Assembly: GCA_964234715.1 (NCBI GenBank)
Contig: OZ174277.1
DNA: 64,000 nucleotides
DNA from: Podarcis melisellensis
Lineage: Eukaryota
Strand: one strand, 5' to 3'
Part shown: positions 1 to 60,310 of the stretch, in pieces
Layout of the letters: every line of letters starts with the position of its first letter
Numbering within the stretch: the first letter of the stretch is position 1
The notes under the pieces: generated by a model
Database searches by the model: none
Seen by the model: the letters and a program-made list of their open reading frames with translations, nothing else
Told to the model about the DNA's origin: nothing
Made by a program: the position numbers and the translations under genes

Positions 1-642
1 AGAGGCAGGAAGTTTCCAGTCACTGGTGGAATTCCATCTCCCTTGGCCACTCAAGGTTTATGATATCCTTGTGGCTGGAGGCCCACTGCTGCACCTAAAA
101 GTAGGAGCACCTTTCACTAGCTCCACATAATAAGGAAAACATGGTGTGTGCACACATCCCAGCAACTTTGCTGGGGGTGATGGTAGAAGAAAACAGCTCT
201 GAATACCAAGTACCATTTTAGAGAAACCGTAAAGATTCATGAGAGATTCTATGAACAGGAGCAGTTTATAAACCCTGATGACAAAGAGAAATGGGTTGAG
301 GGCAAAACTATTCAAGAGATTTTGAAAACATGGTACAGTCAATGCTAGAAAATATCTAGCAAACAATGAATGATTTTGTAAAACCCTGCTACAGGAGCTA
401 CTACCAGCAATTCATATTGCCTGTCCAGGAAGACACCTCTACAAATAGAATTATGCTGCTGCCCCAATATCATAACTGACAAGAGCATTTATTCACCCAC
501 AGAAAGCTGACTGAGCTGCCCACCACAACATACCAATTCAGTGCAAGACTTGCAATAATGCCACATGCTCTTGGTATTGTTTGCAAGAGGATTTATTTTG
601 CACATTGTCCATCCCATTAGGGTTTAAGAGTGATCCACTTAC

Positions 643-1062
643 CTTCATAATACTTTTTAAATCCTGCACATACGTCCTCTCTGTCTCCAGGATTTCTTGG
701 ACCACTCTGTCAACGTACAGGAGCTTTGGGCTTGGAGGCTCAGCGATCAAGGACATGACACAGTTTCTGCTACTTTCCTTAGATTCAGCTCTCCGTGGCA
801 TACTTGGCCTTCTCCCAAGACTTCCGTCAGAGGTCTGCTCCTTTGAAGGGTTGTTTTTTCTCAGCTCCTTGCTGGAAAATCGCTGGGCCGGGCTCAGCTC
901 TAGCTTTATGGCCCCTGCTTCCTTATCCTGGTTGAATAAGCCCAGGTGATTGTTTGAAACTAGCGTTGTTCTGCTGCCAAAGGAACAGTGGCTATCCCTG
1001 GAGGATGCAGAAGATGAGGTGGAGCTGAAGCTGACAGGACGGTCACTGTCTGACAGTTCCAT
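643..1062 (-). CDS. PLEKHG1: PLEKHG1 (pleckstrin homology and RhoGEF domain-containing G1) coding exon: N-terminus and start of the DH domain. Whole exon 643-1181; the gene continues beyond the left window edge
   Basis: Translation [56 protein letters not shown]...[30 protein letters not shown] matches the PLEKHG1 N-terminus as I recall it. Phase-0 donor AAG|GTAAGT at 643/642. Pyrimidine-tract acceptor ctttttcctccccttaaag|ATGGC at 1182/1181. Confidence 0.95.
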
Positions 1063-1424
1063 GGTCTTAATCCCACAGTAGTGGAAGTGTCCGTCTTCTC
1101 TGTGCAGGCTCTCCCCTGGTGTCTTGGGGGTCGTGCCTACCATCACAGGAGGCGGCACGGCAAGAGGCAAATGGTAGCCATCTTTAAGGGGAGGAAAAAG
1201 AAACAATGCCTTTGTTAAATAAAGTGTCATTATCATTGAGTATCCTCCCCAAAATGGGAGACGTCCAACCTGCTTACCTTTGACAGCTGTTTGAAATCAT
1301 CAGTCACAGTCCCAATTTGCTATAATAAACCAGCTTCCCTACAGTCTCTCCCTAGAGACTTCCTTCAGGCCTATATAAACAGCCATTTGACTGATTACTG
1401 GTACTGAGAAAGCATACCTTACAG

Positions 1425-19310: not shown

Positions 19311-20972
19311 TTTTTTTTTTTTTTTTTAATAATTTTTATTATGTTTTTTCAGACGTATACAGAAAAAAGAAGAAAAAGAGAAGCAAAGAAAAAGCAAGCA
19401 ATAGACAAAAAGAAAATAAAAAATTCATAACCCTTCAACAACTTATTTCAACTTTCTATCGAACTTCCCCACATCTCCCGCACAATGCATTCTTAACAAT
19501 AAATTTATCAGCAAATTATAACCTTGTTTCATATATTTCTTTTGTACTTTCAATTGCAGTTTAAGTTTAAATCCCTTATTGCTCGTTTACTCTAAAAACA
19601 GAACATATTATCATTTTTAACATTTAAACTTGGGTTCTTTCAATAATGTTATCCAATTTCATAAATGTTACACACTCATTGCTGGGGCTAGCATTTCAAA
19701 TTATGTGTCATTTTATAGTTCATATAGCTTATAAAATTTTTGCAGATAATTCTTAAATTTTTTCCAGTCCTCCTCCATTGCTTCTTCTCCCAGATCTCGG
19801 ATTCTGGCAGTCATTTCGGCCAACTCCATATAGTCAATCAGTTGCGTTTGCCACTCTTCCAGTGTGGGCAAATCTTGAGTCTTCCAATGTTTGGCGATCA
19901 AAATTCTTGCTGCCGTGGTGGCATACATAAAAAACGTTCTATCCTTCTTTAACACCCCTTGGCCCACAATACCCAAGAGGAAGGCCTCCGGTTTTTTAGA
20001 GAAGGTGTACTTAAACACCTTTTTTAACTCGTTATAGATCATTTCCCAGAAGGCCTTCACTCTTGGGCAGGTCCACCAAAGGTGGAAGAATGTTCCTTCA
20101 GCTTCCTTACACTTCCAACACTTGTTATCAGACAAATGGTATATCTTAGCAAGTTTAACTGGGGTCATGTACCACCTGTATATCATTTTCATGATGTTTT
20201 CTTTCAAGGCATTACATGCCGTAAATTTCATACCGGTGGTCCATAACCTTTCCCAATCTTCAAACATGATATTATAACCAATGTCTTGAGCCCACTTTAT
20301 CATAGCTGATTTAACTGTCTCATCCTGTGTGTTCCATTTAAGCAGCAAGTTATACATTCTCGATAATACCTTGGTCTTTGATTCTAACAGCTCTGTCTCA
20401 AGTTTCGATTTTTCCACCTGGAATCCTGTTTTTTTATCTAACTTAACAACCTCGTTAATTTGGGCATAATGAAACCAATCTTGCACCTTATCTTTTAAAT
20501 TTTCAAAGCTCCGCAACCTCCAATTGTCATCAATTTTTTCTATTAGTTCCCAATATTTCGGCCAGCCGACCTCCATATTGGGTTTTTTCCGCGCCTTGGC
20601 CTCCACTGGTGATAACCACCTCGGAGTTTTACTTTCCAATAAGTCTTTATATTTCATCCAGACCATAAAGATTGCTTTCCTGACAATATGGTTTTTGAAC
20701 ATTCCATGTGTTTTTGCCTTGCCGTACCACAAATACGCATGCCATCCTAACGAATTGTTAAAGCCTTCCAGATCTAGGACATCTGTATTCTCTAATAAAA
20801 TCCAATCTTTCAACCAGCAGAGGGCTGCTGCCTCATAATATAACCTTAAGTCCGGCAGGGCAAACCCCCCTCTTTCTTTTGCATCAGTTAGTATTTTAAA
20901 CTTAATTCGGGGCTTTTTGCCCTGCCAGACAAACTTTGATATATCCCTCTGCCACTTTCCAAAGCATTCCAC
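19311..20972 (-). mobile_element. 5'-truncated L1-clade LINE, young: uninterrupted 419-codon ORF2 C-terminus (19713-20972), 3' UTR and poly(A)
   Basis: KERGGFALPDLRLYYEAA and zinc-knuckle-like CWKC..GTFFHLWWTC motifs. AATAAA plus poly(A), seen as poly-T at 19311-19327. 15-bp TSD TCAATGCAAACTCTA at 19296-19310 and 20973-20987. Confidence 0.95.
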
Positions 20973-30023: not shown

Positions 30024-30258
30024 TTACAGATAGGTAGCCGTGTTGGTCTGCCATAGTCAAAACAAAAAAAATTCTTCCAGTAGCACCTTAAAGACCAACT
30101 AAGTTAGTTCTTGGTATGAGTTTTCGTGTGCATGCACACTAAGGTGTATCTTCAGATACAGTGTATCTGAAGAAGTGTGCATGCACACGAAAGCTCATAC
30201 CAAGAACTAACTTAGTTGGTCTTTAAGGTGCTACTGGAAGAATTTTTTTTGTTTTGAC
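30024..30258. mobile_element. Penelope-like element terminal fragments in inverted arrangement
   Basis: 85-bp inverted arms (30056-30140 / 30174-30258, one mismatch). 14-bp direct flank CAGGGCATAACCAG at 30010-30023 and 30259-30272. gtagcaccttaaagaccaac motif that I associate with reptile PLEs. Confidence 0.8.
30163..30200 (+). ncRNA. Minimal type-I hammerhead ribozyme motif, PLE-associated
   Basis: GTAT-CTGAAGA-AGTGTGCATGCACAC-GAA-AGCT-C-ATAC: core boxes CUGAnGA and GAAA, stem II hairpin, palindromic AGCU stem III, stem I GUAU/AUAC. Confidence 0.7.
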
Positions 30259-30541
30259 CAGGGCATAACCAGCAAGACTTCATGATGTAAACCCAGGTAA
30301 ATATTTGTTTTGTATTCTATTTATAAATACTTTAATTACAAATTGGTTTAATGTAGGGTGCACTAAACGCTATATAATTTTGATATTCCTTCAACTGTAG
30401 CACATTCAAAGACAGCTGAACCCCAAAATACCTGCCACAAGGTTTTCACATTCAACTTGTTTATCACAGTCTTTTTTACTTTCACAAATACTCTAAGCGG
30501 TGTTGGAAACTGACATATGAAAGCTAGGAGCTAAATGGCAC

Positions 30542-30975
30542 TGTAATGGTTCTAGGGATTGCTCGTCCGTAAGTTGCCGCCACTCCTGGCTAGGTTGCCT
30601 GGTTGAACCCTTTCTGTCTGGACAGCCTTTCACCCGTGGCTGTCTCAATCGCTGGCAGAATCCGTCAGTGGGCGTTTTGTGAACTTCTTCCAGCAAATAA
30701 GTTCTTTGACGCCAAGTCTCCTCCTACTCTCCCTGCGTGGAAGTCTTCTGCGCAGGGAGGGTGTGGGCAGCGGAGTACCCCTGCTCTCCCCGCTGGTCTC
30801 CGGTGAAGAGTCCTGGAGCCTCCTCTCCGATTCCCCCATCTGCCCCCCTTCACCACTGGTGTTACGCTGATTTCCTTCCCCAACAGATGGGCTGCCTCTC
30901 TCCCTACTGGGACCCTCTCCGGCATCCCTCTGGAGCCTTCCCTCCACCTCTGGCTCCGATGGCTGTTCCCTGACA
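30542..30975 (-). mobile_element. Solo LTR (434 bp), probably Gypsy-type; strand is that of its internal reading frame
   Basis: TG...CA ends; 5-bp TSD GGCAC (30537-30541 and 30976-30980); homologous to 56291-56725. Confidence 0.8.
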
Positions 30976-32349
30976 GGCACCTTAAGCATAGGTTATGGGC
31001 GCAACAATGGAATGTCTAGGCCCACTTTTTTATAACAAGGATACAAAGCAGAAAATGAATGAACTGCAGCTAAAATCTTATATTCATTTTTCACATGGTC
31101 TAGTCCTCATCTGAAGACTGCAAAAAAAGCCAAAGCCATGCTTCCCCTGCCCGCCCCACTAATATTCTTAAAAGAGGGTCTCTTCTCCAGTCTTCAGAGA
31201 GTGGCTGGAAGTGGGGAGGCAGAAAAAGGTCCTCCTTTTCTTCCACTCTGCAGTTTCAATCTGAAACCTTAGGTGCAGTACTGTGTCCAGAGCTCAGAAA
31301 TGGCTCTCGCTAATGAAATTCCTTGTCGCAAAACGCGCCTAGAACAATGGGAGTTTCGAACACTGGCTTTAAGATAGCAGCCCAAATGCCTCTTCTTAAG
31401 CAATGTATATGGATTAGCTTGAAAAATGACCTCTTTACAATTACCGTATAGTGGGAGTAATTTCTACAAGCAGACCAAAGGAGGGGTAACAGCACCAAAG
31501 CCAATACTTTTCAGATTGGAAAAAAATAACAACTTGCAATGCTTATGACTGCCTCATGAGTTGTTCTTCAGTGTAGTTTGTAAATTTATCCAGAGAAGGA
31601 ACCCTCTCTCCCTGCCCAGTTCCCTCCCAGCTGATCATTTACCTGCCCTAGAAGTAATAGCAACAATAGTAATAAATTTCTGGAGGCCTCTCTCCCTGAT
31701 ATCTGGACTCTGAAAATGTTATGACAGTGTTCCAAGAGTGAGAGGCCATTATGCACTCACTTCAACAAAACTAAGTTTTACATCAGCTCTAGAAGATGCT
31801 CGACCAGTGTTTCCCAAACTTGGGTCTCCAGCTGTTTCTGAAGCACAACTCCCATCATCCCTAGCCAGCAGGACCAGTGGTCATGGATGATGGGAACTGT
31901 AGTCCAAAGACAACTGGAGACCCAAGTTTGAACTCTGAGCTTCAACTCTGGACAACCTGGAGGGAAAGAGAGGCCCAAATTTAGAGAATAGTTGTTAAAT
32001 ATGTCTGTCTCTCTGCCGGCACCATTCATATTTAAAACTTGACAAATTCTGGCCCATGTTATTTAACATCTTCTGCATTGAACGGGAAGAATAATTCAAG
32101 GTGTTCATTGTCATCTATATGCAGGTGACATGTAGCACTTTTAAACTTTTCAACCTAATAGAAAGGAAGCTGTTGAGGTTCTGAACTGAAACCTGGAGAA
32201 ATTAATGAGCTGGATGAGCACTAAGAAACTGAAGATGAATCCACACAAGACACACATGCTCCTGATCAGGAGGGAGATGGCATTGGAACAAGAATTCTGC
32301 CTGGCTTGAATGAGAATGCACACACATAAACACATCTTGAAAACTCAGG

Positions 32350-36214: not shown

Positions 36215-37225
36215 TACTTACCAAACATTGGCTATTACACATAAAAACCAAATACCACACCCACCCACACCCACACACCAAATACCACACCCACCCACCC
36301 ACCCACACACACACACACCATAAAGTAACACACACCATACAGGAACCTAACATGTCCCTAGCCACACAAACATTGTTTGAATCATCTCTCTCACTTTCCC
36401 TCACCACAAACTAACTTTTCAGAAATGAAACATTTTTACATAATCATGCTTAAAATAAGCAGGGAAGGAGAGAAACACTACATTTGAGAAGATAGTTTCA
36501 CCAAAAAAGGATTGCTATTATATTTCCTACAATATGTATTCTGAGAAAATGAAAGAACAAGTTTTCTTAAGAGAAAAACAATACCGACCTTCATTCCTGG
36601 ATAAGGTTTCTTTACCCTCTGGTGTTTTATCTGGCATCTCAGCCGAGACCAATTCAGTGAAACCTGAGGGACATAAAGAAAGAAAACTGTTCTCATACCA
36701 AAGCCAGCAGGGGAAAACTTTTCTATAAGTTCAGGATACTGTTACAAGCTAATTCACACACATCCTATAAAACACTTCATCAAAAGGGCAAACAAAGCTA
36801 ACAATTTAATATATGTGAGCACAAAGAATTTGCTGACCCTATCATGTGTCGTTGAGCTTGAGTAAAGTACCAGCAGTTTGCGGAAACATTTCCTTTAAAG
36901 CAGGAATAGGGAACCTGAGGCCTCCAGACATTGTCTGACTACAACTCCCATCATCCCTGACCAGTCCCAGCACCAGCTGTTGGCCACATTGGGCACCCAC
37001 CCAGGGCCTGACCACTTGCCCTGCTGGCTGGGAATGGTGGGAGTCCCAAGAACAACAGGAGCTCCACAGATTAGTCATCCTTGTTTAAGGAATACACAGG
37101 CCCATATAATTGAAAAAGGGGCTTTGGGGGGGTCAGTTAACTTAAAAATTCAACAGAGAAGTCCTACTAGTGAACACTAGCCAGTGAATCAAAGATGAAT
37201 GAAAATATCTGGCAACCCCTTAGGG

Positions 37226-37361
37226 CAGGCATAGGCAAACTCCAGCCCTCCAGATGTTTGGGACTACAATTCCCATCATCCCTGACCACTGGTCCTGTTG
37301 GCTAGGGATGATGGGAATTGTAGTCCCAAACATCAGGAGGACTGGAGTTTGCCTATGCCTA
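37226..37361. mobile_element. Palindromic hAT MITE, well-preserved copy
   Basis: ~55-bp inverted arms CAGGCATAGGCAAACTCCAG.. / ..CTGGAGTTTGCCTATGCCT; TSD ccttaggg / ctttaggg. Confidence 0.85.
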
Positions 37362-37699
37362 CTTTAGGGCCTTCAAGTCAAAACAGTAAAAGCATTTTTG
37401 AAAAATAAAGCACACACCTCTCCATTCTCTGTCCAGCTAAGTAAGTCCCACCAAGTTCAATAGGAATTGTTCTTGTTTGCACAGCATCAACCTCAAGACA
37501 TCCAGAGGAATGCCAAGCAGAATAATTTAATCCCAGCCATTACCCCACTATTTGCTTCACTGTGAAAATATATTATAACCTCGCTTTATCAGATATCAGG
37601 GTGATGTACAAAATAAGGCCAAAAATAGTAATGAGACCATAGATAACAACCATAAAGCAGAAGCAAATGTCAGTGCATATCCCTCAGGATCAATTTAAC

Positions 37700-45578: not shown

Positions 45579-45828
45579 TGCAGATCTGAATATTTCTTGT
45601 GCATTCATGTTTTGAGTGTGATGTCATAGCCACACCAGAGATTTAAAGCACATGACTTCCCCCAAAGAATCATGGGAACTGTTGTTAAGGATGCTGGGAA
45701 TTGTATCTCTCTGAGAGGTAAACTACAGTTCCCAGGATTCTTTGGGGGAAGCCATGTGCTTTAAATCTCTGGTGTGGCTATGACCTCACACTCAAAACAT
45801 GAATGCACAAGAAATATTCAGATCTGCA
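45579..45828. repeat. Long inverted repeat (104-bp arms, 3 mismatches, 42-bp loop) around a palindromic MITE core
   Basis: Arms 45579-45682 and 45725-45828 are reverse complements by manual comparison. Confidence 0.9.
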
Positions 45829-56045: not shown

Positions 56046-56290
56046 CTTACTGCATACACATTCAGAAAAGGTGCATGGCATAGCCTTCCAAGGACTATAC
56101 CACCAAAATCCGAATTGTGGAATCACTTGTGCGTGACTATTCCATCACATAAATAGCAATGTACAGTAAACTAACACATCTGAAGAAGGTAAACTAGATT
56201 TGTTTCCTAGTATGCTACTTTTGCAAGGAATATTCATTCGTATATTCCCAATCATACTCCAATGTGGCATCACTCCAGATGGACTGTACG

Positions 56291-56725
56291 TGTCAGGGAA
56301 CTGCCATCGGAACGAGAGGAGGAGGCGAGGCTCCACAACGATGCTGGAGAGGGGCGAAGTAGGGAGAGAGGCAGGTCTCCTGTTGGGGAAGAAAATCAGC
56401 GCAACACCAGGGATGGAGGGGGGCCAATGGGGGAAGCAGAGAGCAGGCTCAGAGACTCTTCACTGGACACCAGCAGGGAGAGCACAGGTCCTCCGCTACC
56501 CACGCCCTCCCAGCGCAGAAGACTTCCACGCAGGGAGAGTAGGAGGAGACTGGGCGTCAAACAACTTTTATGTTGGAAAAGGTTTAAGAAACGCCCACTG
56601 TCGGATTCTGCCAGCGACTGAACAGCCACAAAGTGAGGGGCTATCCAGCCAGGAAAGGTTTAACCAGGCCACCTAGCCAGGAGTGGTGGCAACTTACGCA
56701 CGAGCAACCCCATATAACCATTACA
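56291..56725 (+). mobile_element. Solo LTR (435 bp), same family as 30542-30975, opposite orientation
   Basis: TG...CA ends; 5-bp TSD GTACG (56286-56290 and 56726-56730). Confidence 0.8.
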
Positions 56726-57899
56726 GTACGGTTTTCCTTTTCCGACTGTATCAAGATCAGGCCACAGGGACAATACATATAACCACGTTTTAGGGTTATA
56801 ATTGGCTTATCGTGCTTCTTTGGTGAATTATGATTAAAGGAGCCATCCTATCGTTAAATCGGCATTCATGCTTAAGGTAGTGCACCATGACAGCTGCCTC
56901 ACTGCCTTCACATTTCAAATCTCAGCTGGCAACAAGGGAGTTACTCAAAATAAACTCAGACTGTGGTTGTATGAATTGGCTCCTAAGACAAAGATTAAAT
57001 TTTCCATGCAGACTTCCAGCTTTCAAAATCTGTTTAGACATCCATAAGAACAAATATTTGTGCTATGTGTAGATGCTGGCATAGTATATGAATATATATA
57101 ATTCACACGCAGAAAGACACATACAATGTAAAAAATATTCTAGTACTTCTTTACCAGTCAAGCTAACTGAACATATGGTGCCATATTAATTTAGGACTAC
57201 TGGGTGTCAGGAAAAAAAATTAAAATGTAAATTGTAAAGTTTAAAGGCAGCCCTATACTTCGCCTTTCCAAACACAATTACTTATATATCCCATAGCTGC
57301 TATTTCCAGATTTAGCTTTACTACAAGCAAACAGGATTCCATTATAAATTTAGCTAGAGGCCAGGACCACAAGCAGTTGTGGAAATTTGAACCACAAGCC
57401 TTAATCAGTAAAGGCTGTTCGCTCTGAAAAAGGAAGGAAGGCATTAGATGAAGACTTCTTCTAACACTGCTATTTTATTCTAAAATGTTATCTTTTCAAT
57501 TATTATTTTGATCACATTTATAAATATATATTTCTGTTTATTATTATTATAAAAACTGAGCAAAACAGCATTCACGGGAAAAGCTGAGTAGAGCAACTGG
57601 GCCTCTATTGCTACTGAAAGACATCCGTTTGAATCTTAACTTCCACTAATGGAACAGAGTTCATAGCTGAGGAATGGGGCTTTCCTGCTTCCAATTCCAA
57701 GTCCCCTCTGCAGTGCCTTGTGTTTTCACCAAAAAATAATCCTGGGATTGGGACAGTGCTGGGAAGGGAATGGAAGCTGCAGGCAGAGGGATAACTGTGA
57801 GTAGTCAATGGGAAAGCAACTAACACTCCAATCCTTTGCAAATATTGAGTTGAGCTGCTGTCCATCTATCTCAGGAAACAATGGAGGACTGCACATTTG

Positions 57900-58230: not shown

Positions 58231-58316
58231 TGTTGATGGTTTTAGTCTAACACTGTTTTAACTGAGCTTTATTTTATTTCTTAGTTCTACTTTTTACCCT
58301 CTATAGTTTCAACTAT

Positions 58317-60049
58317 TTGTTGTTGTTGTTTAGTCGTTTAGTCATGTCCGACTCTTCGTGACCCCATGGACCAGAGCACGCCACGCACTTCTGTCTTCCA
58401 CTGCCTCCCACAGTTTGGTCAGACTCATGTTTGTAGCTTCGAAGACACTATCCAACCATCTCGTCCTCTGTCGTCCCCTTCTCCTTGTGCCCTCCTTCTT
58501 TCCCAACATCAGGGTCTTTTCCAGGGAGTCTTCTCTTCTCATGAGGTGGCCAAAGTACTGGAGTCTCAGCTTCAGGATCTGTCCTTCCAGTGAGGACTCA
58601 GGACTGATTTCCTTAAGAATGGATAGGTTTGATCTTCTTGCAGTCCATGGGACTCTCAAGAGTCTCCTCCAGCACCATAATTCAAAAGCATCAATTCTTC
58701 AGCGATCAGCCTTCTTTATGGTCCAGCTCTCACTTCCATACATCACTACTGGGAAAACCATAGCTTTTACTATACGGACCTTTGTTGGCAAGGTGATGTC
58801 TCTACTTTTTAAGATGGTGTCTAGGTTTGTCATTGCTTTCCTCCCAAGAAGCAGGTGTCTCTTAATTTTGTGGCTGCTGTCACCATCTGCAGTGATCATG
58901 AAGCCCAAGAAAGTAAAATCTCTCACTGCCTCCATTTCTTCCCCTTCTATTTGCCAGGAGGTGATGGGACCAGTGGCCATGATCTTCATTTTTTGATGTT
59001 GAGCTTCAGACCATATTTTGCGCTCTCCTCTTTCACCCTCAATAAAAGGTTCTTTAATTCCTCCTCACTTTCTGCCATCAAGGTTGTGTCATCTGCATAT
59101 CTGAGGTTGTTGATATTTCTTCCAGCAATCTTAATTCCGGCTAGGGATTCATCCAGCCCAGCCTTTCGCATGATGAATTCTGCATATAAGTTAAATAAAC
59201 AGGGAGACAAAATACAGCCTTGTCATACCCCTTTCCCAATTTTGAACCAATCAGTTGTTCCATATCCAGTTCTAACTGTAGCTTCTTATCCCACATAGAG
59301 ATTTCTCAGGAGACAGATGAGGTGACCAGGCACTCCCATTTCTTTAAGAGCTTGCCATAGTTTGCTGTGGTCGACACAGTCAAAGGCTTTTGCATAGTCG
59401 ATGAAGCAGAAGTAGATGTCTTTCTGGAACTCTCTAGCTTTCTCCATAATCCAGCACATGTTTGCAATTTGGTCTCTGGTTCCTCTGCCTCTTCTAAATC
59501 CAGCTTGCACTTCTGGGAGTTCTCAGTCCACATACTGCTTGAGCCTGTCTTGTAGAATTTTAAGCATAACTTTGCTAGCATGTGAAATGAGCGCAATTGT
59601 GCAGTAGTTGGAGCATTCTTTAGCACTGCCCTTCTTTGGGATTGGGATGTAGACTGATCATCTCCAGTCCTCTGGCCACTGCTGAGTTTTCCAAACTTGC
59701 TGGCATATTGAGTGTAGCACCTTAACAGCATCATCTTTTACAATTTTAAGTAGTTCAGCTAGAATACCATCACTTCCACTGGCCTTGTTATTTGCAGTGC
59801 TTTCTAAGGCCCATTTGACTTCTCTCTCCAGGATGTCTGGCTCAAGGTTAGCAACCACACTACCTGGGGTGTACGAGACATCCATATCTTTCTGGTATAA
59901 TTCCTCTGTGTATTCTTGCCACCTCTTCTTGATGTCTTCTGCTTCTGTTAGGTCCTTACCACTTTTGTCCTTTATTATGGTAATCTTTGAACAAAATGTT
60001 CCTTTCATATCTCCAATTTTCTTGAACAGATCTCTGGTTCTTCCCATTC
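58317..60049 (-). mobile_element. BovB (RTE) LINE, 5'-truncated, with stops and frameshifts
   Basis: QAGFRRGRGTRDQIAN, FIDYAKAFDCVDH, NNLRYADDTTLMAESEEEL and WRALVHGVTKSRT motifs; (CAA)n tail; TSD TTTCAACTAT at 58307-58316 and 60050-60059. Confidence 0.95.
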
Positions 60050-60100
60050 TTTCAACTATACTTTTTGTTAAATGGCAGAATAGAAATGCTGTAAATAATA

Positions 60101-60310
60101 CCTCTGGCACCTCTGGTTACAAACTTAATTCATTTCGGTAGTCCATTCTTAACCTGAGGTACCACCTTAGCTAATGGGGCCTCCTGCTGCCGCTGCGCCG
60201 CCGGCACACAGTTTCTGTTCTCATCCTGAGGTAAAGTTCTTAACCCAAGGTACTACTTCCGGGTTAGCGGAGTCTGTAACCCGAAGTGTTTGTAACCTGA
60301 GGTACCACTG
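60101..60310. mobile_element. Tc1/pogo MITE family A, diverged
   Basis: Colinear with the 62597 copy; right TIR GAGGTACCACTG. Confidence 0.8.

Follow-up and report, generated by a model that had tools for sequence, protein, structure and literature searches.

Two solo long terminal repeats (LTRs), here called A and B, lie in a 64,000-nucleotide stretch of Podarcis melisellensis DNA (the window), and each carries an uninterrupted frame of 109 codons with an arginine-rich end. Why do two separate insertions hold the same open frame, and which protein would it belong to? A first-pass annotation of the window described A and B as independent, diverged insertions with a frame that runs from LTR base 2 to the same TGA without an indel, and this description stands: the target-site duplications (TSDs) are GGCAC and GTACG, the two LTRs are ~84% identical, the frame is open in both from base 2 to a TGA at LTR bases 329-331, and all indels between them lie 3' of the shared stop codon (Table 1). 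The count of 7 synonymous-only and 7 amino-acid-changing differences in the last 44 codons was reproduced; over all 109 codons there are 11 synonymous and 29 nonsynonymous differences. When the substitutions were re-placed by shuffling with their types kept, P was 0.024 for the last 44 codons, a window picked post hoc, and 0.21 for all 109, and the frame stayed open in ~30% of shuffles; the A and B pair alone is therefore weak evidence for a selected frame. A Pfam search with the two window peptides returned no match.

Table 1. Positions, in the window, of the features of the two solo LTRs.
Feature	Position	Length	Strand	Remark
Element A, solo LTR of subfamily A	30542..30975	434 bp	-	TG..CA ends; strand is element sense
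Element A TSD GGCAC, left copy	30537..30541		none	
Element A TSD GGCAC, right copy	30976..30980		none	
A: end of Pol/integrase frame, severed from remaining pol	30645..30974	109 codons + TGA	-	
A: conserved C-terminal block	30648..30773		-	Pro/Arg-rich, then LGVxxL(I/L)CW, then basic; bipartite NLS pattern
A: internal ATG	30837..30839		-	in putative U3; not conserved by other subfamilies
A: self-primer site, LTR bases 307-317	30659..30669	11 nt	-	complementary to PBS of full element
Element B, solo LTR of subfamily B, same family	56291..56725	435 bp	+	TG..CA ends
Element B TSD GTACG, left copy	56286..56290		none	
Element B TSD GTACG, right copy	56726..56730		none	
B: Pol/integrase tail	56292..56621	109 codons + TGA	+	
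B: conserved basic/CW C-terminal block	56493..56618		+	
B: self-primer site, B variant	56597..56607		+	one base unlike A; compensating change in B-type PBS

Both window elements are solo LTRs of a high-copy lizard Ty3/Gypsy chromovirus of ~5.6 kb; homologues and a PSIP1 exon of 98% identity likewise indicate a lizard near Podarcis as host. Element A is 95% identical to both LTRs of the two-LTR element L064, and element B has 96-97% identity with those of L061 and L062. Searches of the genome with the two LTRs gave 3993 and 3163 first-look candidates, of which 40 each were scored. Fifty-six of 60 fetched loci are solo LTRs, three follow a polypurine tract (PPT) and one precedes internal sequence; the 5-bp TSD is perfect at 49 loci and imperfect at 7, and the remaining 4 loci are joined to internal sequence. 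The 109-codon frame is intact in 52 of these 60 top-scoring copies, a set selected by highest identity and hence tilted toward intact copies. The TG..CA ends, the TSDs and the existence of two-LTR elements with an internal region confirm that the elements are LTRs, as had been supposed.

The two-LTR elements encode, in Ty3/Gypsy order, Retrotrans_gag, a zinc knuckle, protease, RT, RNase H, integrase, SH3 and Chromo domains, and the domain search detected no env in them; their best PDB match is Ty3 Gag-Pol (E 4e-122). The chromodomain lies at the integrase C-terminus (PF00385, E 1e-10 to 5e-10) and lacks the aromatic of the HP1 WKGY motif; the third cage aromatic is absent. In full elements the PPT precedes the TGTCAG of the 3' LTR. 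Where gag and pol overlap, 6 of 7 elements inspected have a GGGAAAC heptamer, which is probably a -1 frameshift site giving access to pol, a role assigned from the biology of PEG10.

The genomic distribution of the family deserves separate mention. Of the 40 best matches to the internal region, 25 fall on one contig of assembly G000 (C19, 38.8 Mb, 2.5% of the 1.57-Gb genome), from which the query itself was taken; for the LTR queries this contig accounts for 1/40 and 5/40 of the best matches. Our guess is that C19 may be a W-like, non-recombining chromosome. One internally deleted element recurs in at least 30 near-identical copies with the same flank (L175-L204, on C19 and C218 of G000), which points to recent amplification of a segment on C19. 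With its TGA in the motif, this element had the look of a non-autonomous lineage, a reading that was rejected: all 30 fetched copies have one common 3' flank, and the element is therefore a single insertion amplified segmentally and uninformative on selection. In the window itself, fragments of two ORF2s, presumably of LINE-like class, occupy 19713-20972 (minus strand; without a Pfam match) and ~58300-60140, and long, near-perfect inverted repeats of MITE-like appearance lie at 30049-30265, 45579-45828 and 37218-37369, one of them ~280 bp from A.

The full-length elements reveal where the LTR frame comes from. Past the chromodomain, the integrase frame continues through an acidic linker of ~120 residues, reads the PPT as codons, and then adds an LTR-encoded tail of 71-109 residues; subfamilies differ in tail length but preserve the frame up to the CW motif. 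This stretch from chromodomain to LTR is in frame in 31 of 43 distinct copies of internal region plus 3' LTR, and no stop codon within it is common to more than three of the 31 in-frame copies; the other 12 have lost the frame, mostly by indels in G-runs around the PPT, which we read as post-insertion damage. Thirty further loci, which overlap the earlier ones in part and include distant subfamilies, have an identical phase at 25 of the 27 junctions that were located. One copy (L008) has 500 open codons up to the LTR; another (L157) has a single 1076-residue ORF that matches RT, RNase H, integrase, SH3 and Chromo and terminates at the LTR stop; and two UniRef Pol proteins of Podarcis muralis (P0006 and P0007) terminate in the LTR-frame peptide. 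Because the integrase frame continues into the LTR and the UniRef Pol ends in this peptide, the LTR ORF is the end of Pol copied into every LTR; since the two LTRs of an element share one sequence, this piece of the frame is present in all LTRs, including the solo ones. We consider it highly probable that the 109-codon frame is the C-terminus of the chromovirus Pol/integrase, running via the PPT into the 3' LTR, and that its basic end is likely a nuclear-import signal. The proposal that the parent retroelement encodes an ORF running into the LTR is thus borne out by full-length two-LTR elements, oriented by PPT and primer-binding site (PBS). In AlphaFold2 models the chromodomain has a pLDDT of ~90 and the other ~200 residues are of low confidence; the LTR-encoded tail is predicted to be disordered.

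The PBS indicates how and where this frame would be expressed. The sequence after the 5' LTR, which starts with GC and not TGG (judged by the start letters), complements an LTR site ~128 nt from the LTR 3' end (153 nt in distant subfamilies). The comparison excluded ten of the 23 regions fetched, which hold no LTR pair inside the stretch; among the 13 two-LTR elements compared, the complement is exact over 10-11 nt with at least one LTR in 8, has one mismatch in 3 and two mismatches in 2. The two sites covary, with five distinct matched pairs: between the A, B and L158 types a change in one site is compensated in the other, and in two distant subfamilies the pair is formed by entirely different 10-mers. 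The duplex also appears in the RNA fold (z -1.9, for the whole segment). In L163 and L169 the PBS and the LTR primer site come from different variants (2 mismatches), which suggests inter-subfamily recombination or post-insertion change. From these complementarities we infer that reverse transcription is self-primed in the manner of Tf1/sushi elements, which in turn would place the transcription start at about LTR base 307. With that start, the frame would fill U3 and be translated only from the 3' LTR of the full-length RNA, as the Gag-Pol terminus. The self-primer site of A overlaps the last codons of the frame and would mark the start of R and of the transcript; the DNA encoding the CW motif lies 26-31 nt upstream of this putative start, so promoter constraint may add to the conservation of the motif, and the same DNA would double as core promoter and primer besides encoding the Pol end. 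RNA reads of a related species (three raw runs and one contig set, at low depth and mostly <95% alike) gave no starts, no pile of read ends and no splice joints. An AATAAA-like signal is absent from R-U5 in three A/B-related LTRs scanned (e.g. L064:519-646), and two distant subfamilies have AATAAA at LTR bases 285-288.

We have shown that the LTR frame was under purifying selection while the lineages were active. In a codon model of 15 real copies from several subfamilies, omega is 0.47 for the whole LTR frame (2dlnL = 40 against omega = 1), 0.53 for the LTR spacer and 0.38 for the LTR terminal block, values that include neutral post-insertion changes and come from copies chosen for an intact frame and high identity; the latter choice biases the open-frame counts upwards. 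Two copies were excluded from these estimates, L099 for a compensated frameshift and L127 as too divergent. Shifted-frame controls give 1.32 and 1.31, and the integrase core with SH3 and chromodomain gives 0.13; constraint on the LTR part is far below that on the enzyme domains. Comparing 30 A-type with 29 B-type copies pair by pair (L025, which has the same flanks as L007, was excluded) gives a net omega of 0.39, divided into 0.55 for codons 1-45 and 0.26 for codons 46-109; other frames give 1.63, 0.77, 2.14 and 1.03, and a value of 0.34 belongs to the antisense frame that shares third positions. The coding constraint first read from two copies is therefore real at the level of the family, where the comparison of the frame with other frames had been proposed as a check, and weakly visible in the two copies themselves.

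Selection has not, however, kept the frame open in solo LTRs. Their frame was inherited from active parents and then decayed neutrally: within B, omega is 1.25 and private mutations number 11 synonymous to 34 nonsynonymous. Within A, omega is 0.38 and variants are shared more (10 synonymous to 8 nonsynonymous), which fits several active parents.

What, then, does the tail do? Its terminal block has the form basic-LxxL(L/V)CW-basic, with a Cys-Trp pair that is invariant in 23/23 copies and comprises the sole invariant residues near the tail end. A bipartite NLS pattern (two basic residues, a spacer of 10-12, 3 of 5 basic) is found in 21 of the 23, in keeping with the earlier description of an NLS-like end; the pattern is a weak one, common by chance in Arg/Lys-rich sequence, and an NLS leaves the invariant Cys-Trp unexplained. 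Ty1 and Ty3 integrases carry C-terminal bipartite NLSs (PMC7175516), which the lizard tail resembles in its basic bipartite pattern near the C-terminus. The NLSs of Ty1 and Ty3 are not known to be LTR-encoded. On balance, we lean toward the view that the terminal block acts as an NLS. In that case the integration complex would be imported by the ~35 C-terminal residues (RR-10 residues-KKFKK around LxxLLCW), which might alternatively bind chromatin or nucleic acid; the hydrophobic core of the block suggests a further partner.

A second conserved feature lies just upstream of the LTR. In the acidic linker before the PPT, 13/13 copies from all subfamilies carry two motifs, each composed of an aromatic anchor, an acidic Ser/Thr stretch and FxGF. 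All four Phe and the two Gly of the FxGF parts are invariant in this set, as are the two aromatic anchors upstream. In the 15-copy codon model, the two motifs have omega values of 0.16 and 0.22, vs. 0.56 for the rest of the linker. The acidic linkers of the motifs span 7-9 residues, nearly all with Ser/Thr; the region has low pLDDT in AlphaFold2, and the helix anchor is predicted from the pattern only. These features resemble the TND-interacting motifs (TIMs) that bind LEDGF/HRP2, defined in PMC9987994 as a helix, an acidic linker of 8-16 residues and FxGF, at times in tandem, within a disordered region; the same source gives the FxGF form as common to all known LEDGF and HRP2 partners. The TIM pattern matches twice in 20 of 23 copies and once in the other 3. 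The TIMs of JPO2/CDCA7L, IWS1 and KMT2A share the helix anchor, the acidic Ser/Thr linker, FxGF, the tandem arrangement and the disorder (PMC9987994), whereas the lizard candidates lie in a retrotransposon integrase; PogZ, a transposase-derived LEDGF partner, binds PSIP1 (PMC8422350). A parallel with pogo transposases as carriers of an IBD-binding motif was not confirmed and was dropped, the term being absent from PMC7386202 and PMC9219625 having no bearing on it.

It is possible, though somewhat doubtful, that the tail serves mainly for target selection and not import, with the FxGF motifs binding TFIIS-N-terminal domains (TNDs) of LEDGF/PSIP1 and HRP2 and the basic/CW block making a second chromatin contact; such a role would be compatible with the explanation of the frame as a Pol tail with an import signal. 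The invariance and low omega of the motifs, their fit to the TIM definition, the presence of PSIP1-like and HDGFL2-like exons in the genome, and a chromodomain without the HP1 WKGY aromatic all speak for it. The likeness is, however, that of a short linear pattern: PDB profile searches with the FxGF region brought up no TIM-containing chain among the matches, and a search of a representative library found only Podarcis-type copies and two unrelated low-complexity chance matches (P0132 and P0133). A complex prediction for the Podarcis PSIP1 IBD and the first FxGF motif, run without alignments or folded controls, scored 0.29 vs. a mark of 0.34, a value that counts neither for nor against binding. 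We regard as rather unlikely, if worth stating, a further proposal in which mark-reading by the chromodomain has been replaced by mimicry of a host motif, tandem TIMs docking LEDGF/HRP2-type TNDs together with an LTR-encoded basic/CW module that overlies the promoter and self-primer.

Could the conservation instead act on the DNA, as core promoter, self-primer and att end, with the open frame a tolerated read-through that has no protein function? The best-conserved codons do lie 26-31 nt upstream of, and within, the putative self-primer, the compensatory primer change accounts for the T/S difference in the last codons, and the tail is predicted to be disordered. The codon pattern contradicts this reading, which is largely refuted and in our estimate very improbable: near-fixed A/B differences fall on third positions in 23 of 44 cases; omega is <1 also in the spacer distant from the promoter and >1 in the shifted frames; and changes of length between subfamilies preserve the frame. 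Moreover, the Leu, Gly and Cys of the motif are encoded by several synonymous codons, a variation that argues for constraint at the protein level.

Even less probable is the original proposal of a separate accessory protein, of nef, sag or Rev type, expressed from the internal ATG or through a spliced RNA. The coding sequences of HIV nef and MMTV sag overlap the U3 of the 3' LTR, but each is an ORF of its own in an env-bearing retrovirus, with its own start and a spliced RNA, whereas the lizard frame is fused to pol in an element without env. There is no stop between the LTR frame and pol, the frame being uninterrupted with Pol/integrase after the chromodomain, which speaks against a separate gene. 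The internal ATG, proposed to start a 64-aa peptide, is present in both window copies and kept in 58 of 59 A/B copies; selection is stronger 3' of it (net omega 0.26 vs. 0.55), and the Arg-rich end would suit such a protein. In other subfamilies, a Met at a comparable position is present in 14 of the 22 copies parsed (L071, with an unparsed junction, was excluded) but is missing in the other 8, which retain the C-terminal motif. With a start at base 307, moreover, the ATG at LTR base 137 is upstream of that start, in U3 and outside the own transcript of a solo LTR. A scan of three elements for a polypyrimidine-AG acceptor, over the 500 nt that precede the 3' LTR and the part of the LTR 5' of the ATG, found none in any of the three, and the three raw RNA runs, at low depth, gave no splice joint. 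Co-option of both solo LTRs by the host as peptide-coding exons, in favour of which one may cite that both copies are still open and that A is on the same strand as a neighbouring RhoGEF gene, has a negligible probability, as 52/60 top copies are equally open and the window copies' own departures from their groups are mainly amino-acid changing (6/8 and 4/5 codons).

The neighbouring ORF (window 538-1296, minus strand) is exon-like and finishes with the first part of a RhoGEF domain (PF00621, E 4e-4, a match short of the cut-off); we take it to be PLEKHG1-like. Relative to the strand of this ORF, both LTRs are upstream, A in sense and B in antisense orientation.

Having identified the LTR frame as the end of Pol, we can compare the family with known systems. 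It resembles the Tf1/sushi chromoviruses (Tf1, Tj1, fish Sushi; GyDB V-clade) in its Ty3/Gypsy domain order with a chromodomain, in a PBS complementary to its own LTR and not to a tRNA (PMC4600332, PMC6317226 and PMC7175516), and, for Sushi, in LTR ends that fit the att motifs TGTYANR and CNTNACA (PMC3601003 Table 3); the likeness refers to priming, domain order and att ends. It differs in having ~230 residues after the chromodomain, 109 of them LTR-encoded, and our literature search found no such post-chromodomain tail described for the group. In plant CRM group A and the Reina 'Bingo' elements, the gag-pol ORF likewise extends past the PPT into the 3' LTR; for CRM, a putative targeting domain is ascribed to the LTR-encoded part (PMC3059260 and PMC3605345). 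In CRM elements, however, the PBS is of the tRNA-Met type and a CR motif takes the place of the chromodomain, whereas the lizard element keeps a chromodomain upstream of the PPT, is apparently self-primed, and has an unrelated-looking tail. The P. muralis UniRef entries P0006, P0007 and P0008 ('Gypsy retrotransposon integrase-like protein 1') belong to the same family, with an annotated Pol that ends in the peptide; they are automatic annotations in which the LTR overlap and the motifs are unmentioned. A literature search that covered few subscription journals and did not include Repbase returned nothing on the tail of the lizard family or on FxGF in a retrotransposon integrase. A Pol that runs into the 3' LTR is a known layout of plant chromoviruses, and the novelty lies in two motif-level features: a conserved C-terminus of the form basic-LxxL(L/V)CW-basic, which is likely a bipartite NLS, and the two conserved, putatively helix-anchored acidic-FxGF motifs just upstream of the LTR.

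In conclusion, the frame gives reason for caution: thousands of solo LTRs in this genome contain an open and seemingly selected frame only because the integrase of their parent ended inside the LTR. A stretch of ~40 nt would appear in three capacities, as protein end, core promoter and self-primer, with compensatory changes across subfamilies. Lentiviral integrases bind the same host domain through another surface; if host-motif mimicry is true, a retrotransposon would have reached the lentiviral integration tether independently, by way of a linear motif. If the FxGF motifs bind LEDGF/HRP2, the family would offer a vertebrate retrotransposon with a defined host tether and thousands of insertion sites.
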